A stretch of DNA of 64,000 bases from Escherichia coli. GTDB lineage: Bacteria > Pseudomonadota > Gammaproteobacteria > Enterobacterales > Enterobacteriaceae. The notes beneath the pieces were generated by a model. That model did no database searches. It was given only the letters and a program-made list of their open reading frames with translations, and was not told the DNA's origin. Positions 3,637-25,002 of this stretch are shown here, piece by piece. The position numbers and the translations under genes were made by a program. The stretch lies in the NCBI RefSeq assembly GCF_002854065.1, contig NZ_CP024153.1; one strand, written 5' to 3'. Position 1 is the stretch's first letter. Each line of letters starts with the position of its first letter.

Positions 3637-4293
3637 CTAGTCAGGAAAAACAACAATACCCAACGCTTCGAGAAGCTGTTCTTGTTGCCAGCTGGCAATT
3701 TTGATACCTGATGTATCGACTTTTCGAGGATCTAAACCGTCGAGTTCGGCGTGACATAAATTAGCACCCTGTAGGCTAAACTGTCCCCAGACATCTTCAG
3801 AAAAAACACCTCGACTTAAGTCTGACTCTTTCAGTGATGCGCCCGCGAGGTGAGTCCCTATCCAGCGATTTTCAAACAGCTCACATTTTTCTAAACAGAC
3901 CCGCTCCATATTGGCATAAGACAGGTTACATCCAGTAATAAAGGCTGAGCAAAAGTACATACGATTACTCACTTGATTGGCAAAGTTTGCTCGGGAAAAG
4001 TTGGCCCCTTTTAAATCACACTCACGTAACTCAATACCGTAGCAATTGGCGTTACTAAAGTTTGCCATCGCAAGCTGGCATTGTTGGAAACTTGCATCGC
4101 GAAGGTCTGCGACATCAAAATGGCAACCTTCGATATCACCCTGTTCAATGAACTTGCAGTTAATAAATGTCGCATCACGCAAGTTAGCACGTCGAAAATC
4201 GCATCGGATAAAGGTGCAAGCAGTGAAAGTAATATCACTTAGATCTTGATGTGAAAAACTGTGGTGTCGATATGTGTGACGGTAGGTTTCCAT
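3637..4293 (-). CDS. qnrS: Qnr pentapeptide-repeat quinolone-resistance protein, QnrS family (closest to recalled QnrS2)
   Basis: 218 aa, METYRHTYRHHSFSHQDLSDITFTACTFIRCDFRRANLRD... with tandem pentapeptide repeats and C-terminal ...LEALGIVVFPD. Confidence 0.9.
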   Translation of the reverse strand: METYRHTYRHHSFSHQDLSDITFTACTFIRCDFRRANLRDATFINCKFIEQGDIEGCHFDVADLRDASFQQCQLAMANFSNANCYGIELRECDLKGANFSRANFANQVSNRMYFCSAFITGCNLSYANMERVCLEKCELFENRWIGTHLAGASLKESDLSRGVFSEDVWGQFSLQGANLCHAELDGLDPRKVDTSGIKIASWQQEQLLEALGIVVFPD

Positions 4294-19919: not shown

Positions 19920-20601
19920 TCAGACGGGATTTTGCTTATCAATTATTGAGAACAGAAATTTTCCTGAATCATCAATACTATACTTAGCAAGTAAAGGTGT
20001 TTTCTCATTTATCTGCTTGAGAGCAGGATCAAGGAAAGATCGTTTCAACTCTGCCAAGTTCTTCTGTTGGGATTCCGGCAAAAGGAAACGGTCATTTAAC
20101 CAAGCATGAGTAGTAACCCATAAGCCTGAAGATTTGAATTGAGCAAGACTTTCATAAAGGCGGATCGTCCGTGGATTTCGAAGACTGCCACAATCGCGGA
20201 GCGAGTAGGTGGTGAACTGGTTCGTCAGGCCGTAAATGTACCGCAGGAGTTTATGGTTAAATTCGATTTCCCAGATACCACGAGCTGATCGGCTGCCAGC
20301 CTCTGTTAGCCAGGGGCGCGCGACGCAGTCAAAACTCCCTTCTTTCGGGTAAAAGATTACCGCAGAACGGCTTAACTCAAACACGCCTTCTTTAACATCC
20401 TTGATAGCCTGGTTACGGCTTACCTGAAAAATTTGCTGATAGTCAGCCACCTTTACTTTGAAAGTAGAGTCACCGAGTACAGCCATCTCATCATCATCTT
20501 CGCTTACTGAAGCTGTGAAATACGTCTGCATAAGACATAACCAGAGAACGCGCTTTGCTTTTAGCGAGAGGTAGTAAGCAGCTTCGGTAAGCTCGTTAGA
20601 C
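19920..20601 (-). pseudogene. Rep_3-family (RepE-like) replication initiator, N-terminally truncated by IS26
   Basis: ...NELTEAAYYLSLKAKRVLWL...IRLYESLAQF... parallels recalled F RepE ([20 protein letters not shown]...MRLYESLCQY); first 17 residues of the ORF come from the IS26 end. Confidence 0.75.
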
Positions 20602-21421
20602 GGCACTGTTGCAAAGTTAGCGATGAGGCAGCCTTTTGTCTTATTCAAAGGCCTTACATTTCAAAAACTCTGCTTACCAGGCGCATTTCGCCCAGGGGAT
20701 CACCATAATAAAATGCTGAGGCCTGGCCTTTGCGTAGTGCACGCATCACCTCAATACCTTTGATGGTGGCGTAAGCCGTCTTCATGGATTTAAATCCCAG
20801 CGTGGCGTTGATTATCCGTTTCAGTTTGCCATGATCGCATTCAATCACGTTGTTCCGGTACTTAATCTGTCGGTGTTCAACGTCAGACGGGCACCGGCCT
20901 TCGCGTTTGAGCAGAGCAAGCGCGCGACCATAGGCGGGCGCTTTATCCGTGTTGATGAATCGTGGGATCTGCCACTTCTTCACGTTGTTGAGGATTTTAC
21001 CCAGAAACCGGTATGCAGCTTTGCTGTTACGACGGGAGGAGAGATAAAAATCGACAGTGCGGCCCCGGCTGTCGACGGCCCGGTACAGATACGCCCAGCG
21101 GCCATTGACCTTCACGTAGGTTTCATCCATGTGCCACGGGCAAAGATCGGAAGGGTTACGCCAGTACCAGCGCAGCCGTTTTTCCATTTCAGGCGCATAA
21201 CGCTGAACCCAGCGGTAAATCGTGGAGTGATCGACATTCACTCCGCGTTCAGCCAGCATCTCCTGCAGCTCACGGTAACTGATGCCGTATTTGCAGTACC
21301 AGCGTACGGCCCACAGAATGATGTCACGCTGAAAATGCCGGCCTTTGAATGGGTTCATGTGCAGCTCCATCAGCAAAAGGGGATGATAAGTTTATCACCA
21401 CCGACTATTTGCAACAGTGCC
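20602..21421 (-). mobile_element. IS26 copy 5 (variant: Asn184 plus one synonymous change)
   Basis: 820 bp; ...KLKRIINATLGFKS... Confidence 0.95.
20654..21376 (-). CDS. tnpA: IS26 transposase Tnp26 (Asn184 form)
   Basis: 240-aa ORF; GGC to AAC at codon 184 relative to copies 1-3. Confidence 0.95.
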   Translation of the reverse strand: MLMELHMNPFKGRHFQRDIILWAVRWYCKYGISYRELQEMLAERGVNVDHSTIYRWVQRYAPEMEKRLRWYWRNPSDLCPWHMDETYVKVNGRWAYLYRAVDSRGRTVDFYLSSRRNSKAAYRFLGKILNNVKKWQIPRFINTDKAPAYGRALALLKREGRCPSDVEHRQIKYRNNVIECDHGKLKRIINATLGFKSMKTAYATIKGIEVMRALRKGQASAFYYGDPLGEMRLVSRVFEM

Positions 21422-21491
21422 GATTAGAGCACTATAAAGAACTAAAGAAATGAAGATACAAAGATACGAATATCTGAATAAAAACAGAAAA

Positions 21492-21612
21492 ATGCGTACC
21501 CATCCACCTTTCAGTGCGTACCCATCCACCTTTCAGTGCGCAGCCATCCACCTTTCATGAAAATTACAGTGCGTACCCATCCACCTTTCAGTGCGTACCC
21601 ATCCACCTTTCA
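21492..21612. repeat. Five direct 22-bp iteron-like repeats GTGCGTACCCATCCACCTTTCA (origin-like)
   Basis: Read directly; four near-perfect copies and one variant (GCGCAGCCATCCACCTTTCA). Confidence 0.75.
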
Positions 21613-21783
21613 TTTTGAGGCGACAAAAAACAACACCTATCTTAATGAAATTATTGATAAAAAAACTGGCACAATGTTTGCAGAATAAGTTAGAGTAAGT
21701 TAAAGATCTTAAAGTAGATCTACCGATCTACATTTAAGATCTTAAAAACAAGAAGTTTAATAAGCAAAAAAACACAAAAAATC

Positions 21784-21831
21784 TGTGGATAACTTTGCTC
21801 AAAACAAAAAATTCACACTACCTGTGGATAA
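21784..21831. promoter_or_regulatory. Two DnaA-box-like sites TGTGGATAA, 30 bp apart, in AT-rich DNA
   Basis: CTGTGGATAACTTTG appears twice; AT-rich context beside the iterons. Confidence 0.5.
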
Positions 21832-22474
21832 CTTTGCGTAAACCCAGAGGACAGATCACTCTGAACCAAGACAACCACACATAAAAACAATATGCTCGCT
21901 TTTTAACCACTGCGCGTAATTGCCTGATGTTATCCCTGTGCTGTTCCGCTTCCTCGCTCACTAACTCGCTACACTCGGTCGTTCGGCTGCGGCGAGCGGT
22001 GTCTCCTTTCTCAAAACCAGAAGAGTTCAGATCATACGATCCGTTGATTGATCCTTTTTGGATCTTTCACTGAGAAGCCCTGAATCGCTTTCTAACGCTT
22101 TGTTCGATGTAACCATGAGGAAAACCATGTGAAATCGAAAAAATCGCTCAGAATGCGATACAGCGCGTTTTAGAGGGTATTTACAAAACAGTCGTTGCCT
22201 TGAGGAAATTTTGATCAAGATTGAACTCCTATCCGGATCATGGCAACAGATCACAGCAACAAGGCCGCTAAAAAGCGTTGAGCGGCGTTAAAAACCGTTA
22301 AACCGTAGCTGACTATAACGAAACGGGAAAAAACGCTCAGAACGCGTTACAGAGCGTTTTAAGGCGATGTCGGAAAGAGCCATACCTCACCTGTTCTGAT
22401 GTTTTTCTCAACACAAGCACTTTTAAGAGTACTTTTAAAGATGCTATTATGCCAATAAGACAAGCGGAGGACTT

Positions 22475-22726
22475 ATGAGCTATCAAATTCTGACAACCAC
22501 AGCGGCCAGTATTACTGACCTGAAAAAAAATCCTATGGGAACCGTAGCTGAAGGTGAAGGGGACGCTGTTGCGATCCTGAACCGAAACGAACCGGCGTTC
22601 TATTGCGTTCCACCAAAACTTTACGCCTACTATCGGGAACTCGCTGAAGATGCTGAGTTAAACGCTGTTGCTGATGAGCGCATGAAAAACCCGGAAATTG
22701 TGAAGGTTAACCTGGATGACCTATGA
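22475..22726 (+). CDS. Phd/YefM/StbD-type antitoxin
   Basis: 83-aa ORF overlapping the downstream RelE-like gene by 11 bp; typical antitoxin size and arrangement. Confidence 0.7.
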   Translation: MSYQILTTTAASITDLKKNPMGTVAEGEGDAVAILNRNEPAFYCVPPKLYAYYRELAEDAELNAVADERMKNPEIVKVNLDDL

Positions 22727-22997
22727 ACTGGCTTTTGACCGCAGAGCACTGAAGGAATGGCAGAAACTCGGCCACACCATCCGTGAACAATTCAAAAAGA
22801 AGCTGGCAGAACGGCTGGAAAATCCACGCGTACCCGCAGCCCGGTTACATGGTCATGCTGATCGCTATAAAATCAAACTTCGTGCATCTGGCTACAGACT
22901 TGTATATCAAGTCATTGATGAGAAAGTCGTTTTACTCGTTATTGCTGTTGGAAGAAGGGAAAGCAGCGAAGTTTATCAGATTGCAGATATGCGCTGA
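22716..22997 (+). CDS. RelE/StbE/ParE-family toxin
   Basis: 93 aa MTYELAFDRRALKEWQKLGHTIREQFKKKLAERLENPRVPAARLHGHADRYKIKLRASGYRLVYQVIDEKVVLLVIAVGRRE, characteristic RelE/StbE pattern. Confidence 0.8.
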   Translation: MTYELAFDRRALKEWQKLGHTIREQFKKKLAERLENPRVPAARLHGHADRYKIKLRASGYRLVYQVIDEKVVLLVIAVGRRESSEVYQIADMR

Positions 22998-23183
22998 ACT
23001 GAAACCCGCCCCGTAATTCGCGGCTGCAGCCGCTCAGACGCGCAGATGCTACACACCGTCACGGCGTACCGTTCGCAAGCTTACGCGCTAACTGCGAAAG
23101 GCTAATTGCGTGTTGTTAGTCCGGTAATGGGCTTTGCAGGGAGGGGGGATGTCCCTGATCTTAATTAAGCTGGTTTGTTTCCG

Positions 23184-23325
23184 GGCACTGTTGCAAAGTT
23201 AGCGATGAGGCAGCCTTTTGTCTTATTCAAAGGCCTTACATTTCAAAAACTCTGCTTACCAGGCGCATTTCGCCCAGGGGATCACCATAATAAAATGCTG
23301 AGGCCTGGCCTTTGCGTAGTGCACG
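23184..23325 (-). mobile_element. IS26 fragment (142 bp of one end, internally truncated)
   Basis: GGCACTGTTGCAAAGTTAGCGATGAGG...GCGTAGTGCACG matches the IS26 end, then diverges. Confidence 0.9.
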
Positions 23326-25002
23326 TATAGGAAATTGAAAAACCAGTCGATACCATTGTCCACGCCTTATGCCACGTGAGCCTTTCTGCTTTTCCCACCA
23401 CTCCGGTGGTTTCCCTCTCTGTATGGTCGATTTTTATACCGTAACAGGCTGTTTTTTATACTTTCACCGATTCCCGGGCACACTTAGCCTGTGTCAGGCC
23501 GGCATATACCTCAGTAGACTGATATCCCGCGCGTTTTTCTTCAGCCCTGATACATTCAGCCCCGCAATGGCCCGGCGGTATACCATCCGGCAGCCACACA
23601 GCACGCATTCGAACGGGTCACGACTCAGGAACTGTTTCACCATTTGTGCATAGCACACTTTCGCCACTGGTTCCGGTTTATCCATCCCCAGTGCACGGTA
23701 CACCTGCGGCAGCTTCTCTCCACACACACGGTTGGCAAGGAACCCGAAGTACCTCACCATCTTAAAAAACTTCTCCGGGATGTGCTGTTTCAGCCTCGCG
23801 ACCAGCTCACGCTGTGTCAGCGTTTCCGTCGCCGTTTCTCCCGTTTTGTGGTCCAGGTAACGGAAGCTCAGGCTTGCCCCTCCGTTGTAATGAGCCAGTC
23901 GGGAAGCCGCTATTGGTGGCTTCTTCAGATAACGACCCAGGTAGCGTGCCGTATTCCGCCCTCCGGCTGTCTTCTTCGACATGTACACATGCCAGTATTT
24001 TCCGCCGGATTTCAGCACCAGGCTTCTCCACTGTGATTCCGTCGTGATATGTGACAACGACTCCGGCATTGCCATCCCCTCTGACCACGCTTTCAGAAGC
24101 AGCTGCCGCATATTCCACATCCACCGTGAACGCATCGCGTCTTTCAGGAAGCTCAGCTTTTTCCACTGACCATGCTTATTCAGACCTCCACAGGTTACAG
24201 ACACATGTACATGCGGATGCCAGTTGAGACGACGGCCATACGTGTGGATGGCGCAGAAGATACCGGGTTCCAGCCCCCGTTTTCGGGCGGCATACAGCAG
24301 ATTCTCCACCGCCAGACGGCACACGTCATTCAGCAGCCAGCGGTTGCTTTCGAACACCGGCCACAGCGTGTCCGGCAGGGTGAAGACCAGATGTACCCAG
24401 TCGCAGTCAGGAAGACGATTCAGCTGTGTTGCTGTCCACAGGTCTGTGGCCTTCTTTCCGCAGGACGGGCAGGCACGGCTGCCGCATGAGTTGGTCAGGT
24501 ACTTTACGTGCTGACAGTCCGGGTTATCACACCCGAACTCTTTTACACCCAGTATCCGTGTGCCGCAGGCCAGCATTTTGGTGACGGCTTCAACCTCGAT
24601 ATCGCGCAGACCGCCCGCATCCAGGAAGGACGTCCAGCACTGGTTGGCTGTGAACAGACGTTTCAGAGGGCGGGGAGTAAAACCGGACAACATGAGGATG
24701 GATTAAACCCCGGTATCCTGTAGCAGGGTAAGGGCTGCTGTATCGCCACGGCGCTTCAGGATGGAGGTCGTCACCATCGCAGGTGGTGGGTCCATGGGTT
24801 TGAGCATTTTCATCCAGTCCCATTCTCGTTGTGAGAGCTTCTCAGCACCAACAGAGAGCAGAACTGTATCGATACTTTTGCGGGTCAACATAAGGGGATG
24901 AGTCCTTAATAAAACAGGTCCTCAGAGCATACATATTCTGCGGGGCGTGCGGCAACAACAGGACGAACCGGGGCGGTTTTCAATTTGCAGCCGCCAGGCT
25001 GC
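23326..25002 (-). mobile_element. IS91-family rolling-circle element (IS1294-like, about 1.68 kb); boundaries approximate
   Basis: Single HUH/Y2-type transposase ORF plus small upstream ORF; length consistent with IS1294; one end duplicated at 16471-16584. Confidence 0.65.
23494..24693 (-). CDS. tnpA: IS91-family (IS1294-like) transposase
   Basis: 399 aa with Cys-rich zinc-binding N-terminus (CGTRILGVKEFGCDNPDCQHVKYLTNSCGSRACPSCGKK), HVH (HPHVHVSV) motif and C-terminal tyrosines typical of IS91-family Y2 transposases. Confidence 0.85.
   Translation of the reverse strand: MLSGFTPRPLKRLFTANQCWTSFLDAGGLRDIEVEAVTKMLACGTRILGVKEFGCDNPDCQHVKYLTNSCGSRACPSCGKKATDLWTATQLNRLPDCDWVHLVFTLPDTLWPVFESNRWLLNDVCRLAVENLLYAARKRGLEPGIFCAIHTYGRRLNWHPHVHVSVTCGGLNKHGQWKKLSFLKDAMRSRWMWNMRQLLLKAWSEGMAMPESLSHITTESQWRSLVLKSGGKYWHVYMSKKTAGGRNTARYLGRYLKKPPIAASRLAHYNGGASLSFRYLDHKTGETATETLTQRELVARLKQHIPEKFFKMVRYFGFLANRVCGEKLPQVYRALGMDKPEPVAKVCYAQMVKQFLSRDPFECVLCGCRMVYRRAIAGLNVSGLKKNARDISLLRYMPA

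Follow-up and report, generated by a model that had tools for sequence, protein, structure and literature searches.

The stbD and stbE genes carry the names used in papers on IncX1 plasmids; they are annotated in plasmid pECTm80 and were retained in the synthetic plasmid pX1.0 (PMC3332091, PMC3097218). In the Morganella plasmid R485 and in the IncX1 plasmids pOLA52 and pECTm80 an 83-aa antitoxin gene is followed by an overlapping 93-aa toxin gene, and in plasmids of the pOLA52/pECTm80 type the pair lies between the gamma origin and conserved small open reading frames (ORFs). The same genes were found at the same place in a stretch of 64,000 nucleotides of the Escherichia coli contig NZ_CP024153.1 (assembly GCF_002854065.1), which is called the window below. 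The genes are no different; here they stand on a 1.76-kb IncX1 fragment without pir, between copies of IS26. Two imperfect direct repeats of about 40 bp precede the pair and are the main subject of this work. The analysis revealed that these repeats belong to the IncX origin flank and not to the toxin-antitoxin (TA) module, that the homology of IncX variants breaks exactly at a repeat, where cargo such as stbDE is swapped in, and that the left-hand end of the stbDE cassette (22328-22998) is formed by repeat 2.

Described non-coding elements of plasmids and phages were compared with the repeats. The par locus of plasmid pSC101 has origin-adjacent repeats to which gyrase binds and which support the replication and stability of the plasmid. 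The present repeats resemble par as non-coding direct and inverted repeats flanking an iteron origin, but no sequence similarity between par and the motif was apparent by eye. The primosome assembly site (pas) of ColE1/pBR322, a single-strand initiation (ssi) signal of the phiX174 type, is also a hairpin-forming cis-element and is a neighbour of the repeats in the same origin flank; the difference is that the ColE1 homology ends at about 22016 and the repeats lie outside it. The PeSL elements of T4-type phages were reportedly described by Arbiol et al. in 2010 as 'mobile regulatory cassettes'. They are like the motif in being short conserved intergenic stem-loop elements which flank variable genes and are joints for modular shuffling, but they carry a recognisable early promoter and occur in one phage group only, whereas the motif has no consensus promoter and is present in plasmids and in several unrelated phage families.

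Repeat 1 (22137-22177) and repeat 2 (22326-22366) both lie on the plus strand. In an IncX4 plasmid (L002) the homology to the window covers 21944-22173, up to the end of repeat 1; beyond it comes a DnaJ-domain gene, and there is no TA pair. In a third IncX type (L003) the homology runs over 21494-22359, to the end of repeat 2, after which an unrelated, toxin-first TA pair begins. A further locus (L005) has repeat 1 and then foreign DNA, and R6K has a two-unit remnant, CCTTAGAAGGCGTTTTAGAAG, at the equivalent place. Repeat 1 together with its left flank is kept in IncX4, L003, L005 and L008. The plasmids L004 and L008 contain one hybrid copy each, having the backbone on the left and the stbDE cassette on the right; their backbone is 82-89% identical to the window and their cassette 96-97%, from 22328 (L004) or 22320 (L008) to 22998. 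Because single hybrid copies occur and the breakpoints fall at the motif, the motif is taken as the joint of cassette transfer between diverged backbones. The first-pass annotation had considered that the repeats might be part of a known element unrelated to the TA pair. Their independence of the pair was borne out, but no characterised element corresponding to them was found, and the pas (21944-22013) excludes them.

The occurrence of the repeats was evaluated with a profile hidden Markov model (HMM) built from 36 copies of other replicons, with the copies of the window left out. The profile matched repeat 1 at 22145-22175 (E = 4.2e-10) and repeat 2 at 22334-22364 (E = 7.2e-10). The two repeats differ at 8 of 41 positions, and this identity of 80.5% is in accordance with the approximately 80% given by the first-pass annotation; in a repeat search of the window the pair grew to 42 nt with 83% identity and a distance of 189 bp. 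When up to 3 mismatches were allowed, a degenerate 35-nt pattern found these two sites only in the 64 kb and none in 100 shuffles. The repeat pair is thus real and is not a chance occurrence. The CGCTC...GAGCG dyad earlier ascribed to both repeats is present in repeat 2 only, repeat 1 having CGCTC...GCGCG. Other dyads are ATCGC-N7-GCGAT in repeat 1 and AACGC-N7-GCGTT in repeat 2, and AGAAYGC-N8-GCGTTTT is common to both.

The core of the motif has a consensus of about 32 bp, cGCTYAGAAYGCGWTACAGNGCGTTTTAGRGG, which can be read as three or four phased units (GCTYAGAAY / GCGWTACAGN / GCGTTTTAGR). Additional units are present in L030, L031 and L015, and in several families a DnaA-box-like 9-mer resembling TATTCACA stands 3' of the core. 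Between the origin and stbDE, the stretch 22100-22400 contains five GCGTT, each on the same strand, and is the 300-nt bin of the window in which GCGTT is densest; the pairs 22275/22285 and 22344/22354 are each 10 bp apart. A partial inverted copy with the first two motif units, GCGTTAGAAAGCGATTCAGGG on the minus strand, lies at 22076-22098 (profile E = 0.0062, 12.8 bits), and weak profile matches were obtained at its place in L003, L005, L008, L002 and L004. A degenerate middle copy, GCTAAAAAGCGTTGAGCGGCGTTAAAAACCGTTAAACCG, may be present at 22267-22305 of the plus strand; this weak assignment was made by eye and from GCGTT/CGTT at 22275, 22285 and 22296, in 10-bp phase. The stretch is conserved in L003 and gave no match with the profile HMM. 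Apparent gapped copies were also seen by eye, one (CCGCTCAGACGCGCAGATGC) at 23030-23049, just after stbE and where the GC-rich backbone segment common with IncX4 starts, and its IncX4 counterpart (ACGCTCACACGCGCAGTACAGCGCC) at about 3108-3135 of L002. Neither of them had a profile match and they were not counted as copies.

The replicon setting was established from the features to the left of the repeats. In rightward order these are the IncX1 gamma-origin iterons (21487-21613), which were recognised as repeat families of 22-bp units of the CCATCCACCTTTCAGTGCGTAC type, an AT-rich stretch with four GATC sites, two DnaA boxes (21784-21792 and 21823-21831), the pas and a second GATC cluster, followed by the repeats and stbDE. 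The same element order was found in IncX4, in the third IncX type and in R6K (L081). The ColE1/pBR322-type pas (21944-22013) was located from matches to plasmid records and is presumably the n' site of pBR322; over 5000 plasmid records, thousands of them small ColE1-type plasmids, match the stretch 21940-22016 at 89-96% identity. This segment is embedded in the IncX1 and IncX4 origin flanks and is absent from R6K. The IncX1 fragment (21422-23183, 1.76 kb) is separated from its pir gene and is bounded by a complete IS26 on the left (20602-21421) and by a 145-bp IS26 remnant on the right (23184-23328). The Rep_3 gene further left (19920-20601), whose 5' end is cut by IS26, has no match to the IncX1 pir of the reference plasmid, and at least eight copies of IS26 are present in the window. 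The origin-stbDE fragment is an orphan caught between IS26 copies within a larger plasmid.

The distribution of the core was analysed by pattern scans and BLAST. Among plasmid records 1482 contained it, essentially all of them IncX with the addition of Arsenophonus and a few phage-plasmids; in the same scan IncF, IncI and ColE2-type plasmids were not matched. The core was further present in 314 phage records and 49 viral contigs, the carriers including T5-like Epseptimavirus and Sugarlandvirus, the jumbo Erwinia phage Asesino, a Seunavirus, Cronobacter phages and P2-like and lambdoid prophages. Other gammaproteobacterial carriers were Arsenophonus, Buttiauxella, Phytobacter, Aliivibrio and Catenovulum. 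The scan of species genomes gave 21 matches against about 9 expected by chance; 10 of these lay inside long ORFs of unrelated phyla, which fits the chance number, and the remaining 11 lay between genes in contigs that are gammaproteobacterial or IncX-like. An intergenic position is thus the rule for the copies in Gammaproteobacteria and in phages. The complete E. coli genomes had 1427 plasmid places versus 143 chromosomal ones, the two chromosomal places inspected were both in prophage islands with long unannotated gaps, and no conserved copy was found in the core genome. No relevant match was obtained in Rfam at E <= 10 for the region and three prophage loci, and six literal 13-mers of the motif gave a single, irrelevant match among 8 million papers. 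The literature on IncX1, pX1.0, pECTm80, IncX regulators, R6K Sfx and the T5 injection-stop region describes stbDE, the three origins and the T5 DnaA boxes, and does not describe the motif; the T5 injection-stop region with its DnaA boxes is presented by Davison (bioRxiv 10.1101/866236), where the motif is not mentioned.

The genes around the core vary with the carrier. In two prophage families it stands in a replication context, directly after a replication-initiator gene (L038) or between O-like and DnaB-like genes (L074). In T5-like phages it lies in the injection-stop region beside DnaA boxes and a LexA-box-like palindrome, in jumbo phages upstream of early promoters, and elsewhere between baseplate genes in the opposite orientation. 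Inverted motif pairs flank segments in the prophages L086 and L087.

Several observations were made at these loci in their own right. In the T5-like L028 and L029 (about 1535-1620) a perfect LexA-box-like palindrome, TACTGTATAAATATACAGTA, begins no more than about 30 nt past the motif, overlapping a promoter-like TTATTC-17-TATAAA, and paired DnaA boxes come next. This arrangement suggests an SOS-controlled promoter in the T5-like injection-stop region. A lambda-like viral contig (L060, 2074-2300) has four tandem 69-bp units between tail genes, with the motif in each. Prophage and phage-plasmid regions of 1.5-2.5 kb without annotated genes contain the motif (L086 4036-6578, L087 2944-4556 and L083 2203-3740), and they show a second inverted copy (L086 6293-6318, L087 7529-7554) and many short units of the TTACAG, TATACAG or CGTTTAAGAGG-like kind; L083 is strongly A+C-rich on one strand. 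The 222-kb 'plasmid' of Enterobacter ludwigii (L006) has the motif, a DnaB-family gene near it and an early-promoter-like sequence, CAGATATATATTAC, which is the same as in the jumbo phage Asesino (L030); what is recorded here as a plasmid may be the genome of a jumbo phage.

The question of whether the sequence or a hairpin is conserved was analysed on 38 diverse copies. The arms AGAAYGC/GCGTTTT had 94% of cells pairable, compared to 21-60% with the partner slid. In this stem no pair was changed on both sides and the scores were not above those of shuffles; a longer or lower stem was no better than shuffles, and alternative stems differed in register between members. Only two stem positions vary, as R and Y, and they are wobble-compatible on the plus strand. 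The majority alleles are G and T and the two arms differ consistently; with these alleles two of the seven pairs are wobbles, so the hairpin is less stable than it could be. Folding energies were unremarkable, with z from +0.8 to -2.3. A structured RNA family was rejected, as there was no Rfam match and a covariation test of three candidate helices gave no support beyond the conserved inverted repeat.

Known classes of site were also compared with the motif and rejected. Identity with the pas does not hold, as ColE1-type plasmids match 21940-22016 only and the repeats begin at 22137, and no similarity was found to the G4 complementary-strand origin (nt 3870-4030) for a G4-type ssi. IncX iterons gave E = 5-46 against the motif profile, and the X4 iterons are unrelated to the X4 copy. 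By eye, the core contains no DnaA box, though the TATTCACA-like 9-mer is often 3' of it, and only one half-site of a LexA box; direct repeats of the OmpR/ArcA/PhoP type do not fit in spacing or in the GCG. Likewise by eye, no fit was seen to IHF, Fis, RcsAB, KorB, parS, dif/cer/psi, attC, hix/res or boxA/boxB sites, nor to sigma-70, -54, -28, -32 or -E promoters. The Type I-F CRISPR repeat gave 13/19 matches with two gaps, and the stem of that repeat was not reproduced.

Recognition of the sequence on duplex DNA is favoured here, as a preference and not as a demonstration. The reading that the motif is a duplex-DNA recognition element of the origin flank, which also serves as a recombination joint, is given a probability of about 0.35. 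According to this reading, the motif would be read as duplex DNA by a factor that gammaproteobacterial hosts, or many of the mobile elements in them, have in common, and the three helically phased units, often flanked by GCGTT units and the DnaA-box-like TATTCACA, would form the recognition element. Such an element would probably help to organise or insulate the origin-proximal or early region. Being an island of near-identity in otherwise diverged DNA, the motif would also be the joint for the recombinational exchange of cargo cassettes. A wider proposal, tentative and somewhat unlikely as it stands, is that the core is an undescribed cis-element of IncX origin flanks and of unrelated gammaproteobacterial phage groups, that it is read by one conserved factor with a role in replication-proximal or early-region organisation, and that it doubles as a cassette joint.

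A number of observations weigh against recognition on duplex DNA. Consensus sites for DnaA, IHF, Fis, LexA, ArcA/OmpR-type regulators, KorB and Xer misfit by eye. The site of a host factor would be expected in the core genome of the host, where no copy of the motif was found. The element is also a 7-bp inverted repeat of 94% pairability whose stem variation is compatible with wobble on the plus strand, and a hairpin in single-stranded DNA or in RNA may therefore be the form that is read. In P2-like prophages the copies are remote from any origin, standing between tail genes and in the opposite orientation. The phasing of the extra flanking CGTT units is weakly significant (p about 0.002-0.03), with related sequences contributing to it. 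Breakpoints at a conserved island would moreover be expected from homologous recombination whatever the role of the island.

The alternatives to a duplex recognition element place the function in RNA, in single-stranded DNA, in a recombinase crossover or in TA control. A hairpin insulator or intrinsic terminator acting in RNA, with the minus strand blocking transcription from the cargo region into the origin, is rather unlikely. In each IncX copy the minus strand reads as a short hairpin and then T6-T8, with A6-A8 immediately 5' of the core in all of them, and elsewhere the palindrome comes just after genes: in L043 and L070 the copies lie 7-17 nt past the stop codon with perfect 9-10-bp stems, while in L025 and L026 10-bp stems with compensatory changes are followed by UUUU on the minus strand. 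The minus strand of repeat 2 forms a 9-bp stem followed by U6 (-13.3 kcal/mol, z = -2.25), and that of repeat 1 (ATCGC-N7-GCGAT + T6) was caught by the terminator scan, but the 5-bp stem and T6 of repeat 1 amount to -6.0 kcal/mol (z = +0.84), no stabler than shuffles, and the terminator-like matches in the region numbered 3 against 2.3 expected from shuffles. One compensatory change, T-A to A-T, distinguishes the 5-bp stems of repeats 1 and 2; the 38 diverse copies, however, have no double change in the conserved stem, their lower stem equals shuffles, and the stem register varies among family members. A terminator would also leave the conservation of the loop sequence across unrelated phages and plasmids unexplained, the phages already have a canonical terminator 50-70 nt before the motif, and no backbone gene on this side is transcribed toward the origin. 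A single-strand initiation or loading signal, in which an exposed hairpin with a conserved loop would be recognised by a host priming or loading protein alongside the adjacent pas, is improbable in our judgement. The motif immediately adjoins the pas homologue about 350 bp from the DnaA boxes and is found in the replication modules of two prophage families, its host range coincides with Enterobacterales, Vibrionales and Alteromonadales, and the stem variation is wobble-compatible on one strand only. However, a DNA stem of 7 bp, two of them G-T pairs, is very weak, and copies occur between tail genes and upstream of the early promoters of lytic phages, where special priming is needless. The lack of similarity to the G4 complementary-strand origin also speaks against an ssi, as do the absence of the motif from IncF and other plasmid families in which primase sites were defined, and the fact that R6K, whose ssi signals were mapped, has a remnant only.

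The exchange of cassettes could in principle be the work of a site-specific recombinase, whose crossover would move cassettes such as stbDE as units in the manner of attC or Acinetobacter pdif modules. The breakpoints exactly at the motif and the hybrid copies are consistent with this, and so are the direct copies flanking a 147-bp orphan segment, the inverted pairs flanking segments in L086 and L087 and the four-copy tandem array of L060. But the carriers have no recombinase gene in common, inspection showed no likeness to dif/cer/psi, attC, res or hix cores, and the right end of the cassette (22998) is without a profile-detectable copy; the 13-nt centre between the best arms is too long for known tyrosine-recombinase cores, and a 30-bp island of identity suffices for RecA-dependent exchange. 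A dedicated crossover site is considered very improbable. The first-pass annotation had also proposed that the repeats may be operator or other binding sites, and as distal sites of StbD/StbDE or of another plasmid protein controlling the TA pair they would have in their favour their dyad symmetry and the constant association of repeat 2 with the stbDE cassette, in which it stands some 60 bp before the -35 element. This proposal was not supported for the antitoxin and is hardly credible in general: repeats are present without stbDE in IncX4, in L005, in R6K (as the remnant) and in many phages, they precede a different TA pair in L003, and they have none of the GTAC/GCAC hexamers of the promoter-proximal site. 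Both repeats are off the stbDE promoter, as the distance from their ends to its -35 element downstream is about 250 bp for repeat 1 and about 60 bp for repeat 2.

The gene pair itself is stbDE, a RelE-type module for plasmid addiction that was already known, since hundreds of sequenced plasmids carry it with 100% identity. Many plasmid records match the whole region 21400-23200 at 100% identity and label the genes as 'plasmid stabilization protein' and RelE/ParE toxin. On the plus strand stbD (22475-22726, 83 aa, with GGAGG 7 nt upstream) and stbE (22716-22997, 93 aa) share 11 bp in the ORF list of the window, as had been noted at first reading, and the layout of a small antitoxin gene first, an overlapping toxin gene and a single predicted promoter is that of type II TA systems. 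The RelE/StbE-type assignment was confirmed by family matches: StbE scored E = 3.3e-14 (53.7 bits; cut-off 23) with Pfam PF05016 (ParE_toxin), 39.4 bits (cut-off 27.9) with TIGR02385 RelE_StbE, and E = 1e-35 over residues 1-90 with E. coli RelE in the ribosome-bound and RelBE crystal structures of the PDB. By the curated cut-offs StbE is a member of the RelE/StbE toxin family, predicted to be a RelE-type mRNA interferase. Its identity to E. coli RelE is about 60% over 90 residues, and in the alignment to RelE of PDB 4v7k the residues K52, K54, R61, R81 and Y87 (E. coli RelE numbering), which we take to be the catalytic residues, are identical in all five cases.

The antitoxin appears from its family matches to be a hybrid, with a Phd/YefM- or DnaT-like N-part and a RelB-like tail. 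The first 60 residues of StbD resemble Phd/YefM (Pfam PhdYeFM_antitox, 16.6 bits, below the cut-off of 29.8), and the N-terminus gave E = 1.5e-7 with the DnaT N-terminus in NCBIfam and E = 5.7e-4 with YafN, both far below the cut-offs. The last 27 residues resemble the toxin-binding tail of RelB (E = 0.013). Compared with E. coli relBE, the toxin is alike with all its catalytic residues and the 27-aa StbD tail is like the RelB tail that wraps RelE, but the DNA-binding domain of StbD appears to be of the Phd/YefM (DnaT-N-like) type and that of RelB is a ribbon-helix-helix; because of this difference the stbDE operator is expected to differ from that of relBE. Residues 1-60 of StbD (22475-22654) score better with the primosomal DnaT (PDB 9zbu, E = 6e-4) than with Phd/YefM antitoxins, and stbD, with its DnaT-like N-domain, adjoins a primosome assembly site, which may be a coincidence.

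The first-pass annotation had expected the TA promoter nearer to 22475 than the repeats are, and a predicted sigma-70 promoter was indeed located at 22423-22450 of the plus strand (TTAAGA, 16 nt, TGcTATTAT, TG-extended). It had 9/12 matches plus the TG in the consensus scan and was the sole promoter-like site upstream of stbD. In an IncF plasmid with the same fragment (L085, 2828-4260) an IS110-family insertion lies at window position 22469, between this promoter and the stbD start. Operators of YefM-YoeB and Axe-Txe consist of two hexamer palindromes with a GTAC core, 12 bp apart from centre to centre, over the promoter. The stbDE hexamers AGCACT (22416-22421) and AGTACT (22428-22433) are likewise 12 bp apart and lie across the -35 element; the 40-bp repeats differ in having no such hexamers. 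On this agreement of geometry with the YefM-family operators, 22416-22438 is probably the autoregulatory site of StbD and is a candidate StbD/StbDE operator. The candidate, read from the sequence, can alternatively be taken as the direct repeats GCACTTTTAA / GTACTTTTAA; in L004 the corresponding hexamers AGCACT/AGTGCT are exact reverse complements. The module would work as an ordinary type II addiction module in which StbE is a ribosome-dependent mRNA endonuclease, StbD would neutralise StbE through its RelB-like C-terminal tail, and the Phd/YefM-like N-domain of StbD would bind AGCACT/AGTACT (22416-22433) and repress the promoter.

The significance of stbDE is the usual one, namely that the host is less likely to lose a large, IS26-rich resistance plasmid. 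More is to be gained from the repeats, which show the place and the manner in which cargo is exchanged beside the origin of IncX plasmids, the carriers of mcr-1, NDM and qnr genes, and which present a short sequence which is nearly unchanged in plasmids and in lytic and temperate phages having no genes in common. If a single factor does read the motif, many mobile elements of enteric bacteria would all depend on it, and the motif would be a handle to find origin-proximal and early regions in unannotated phage and plasmid DNA.

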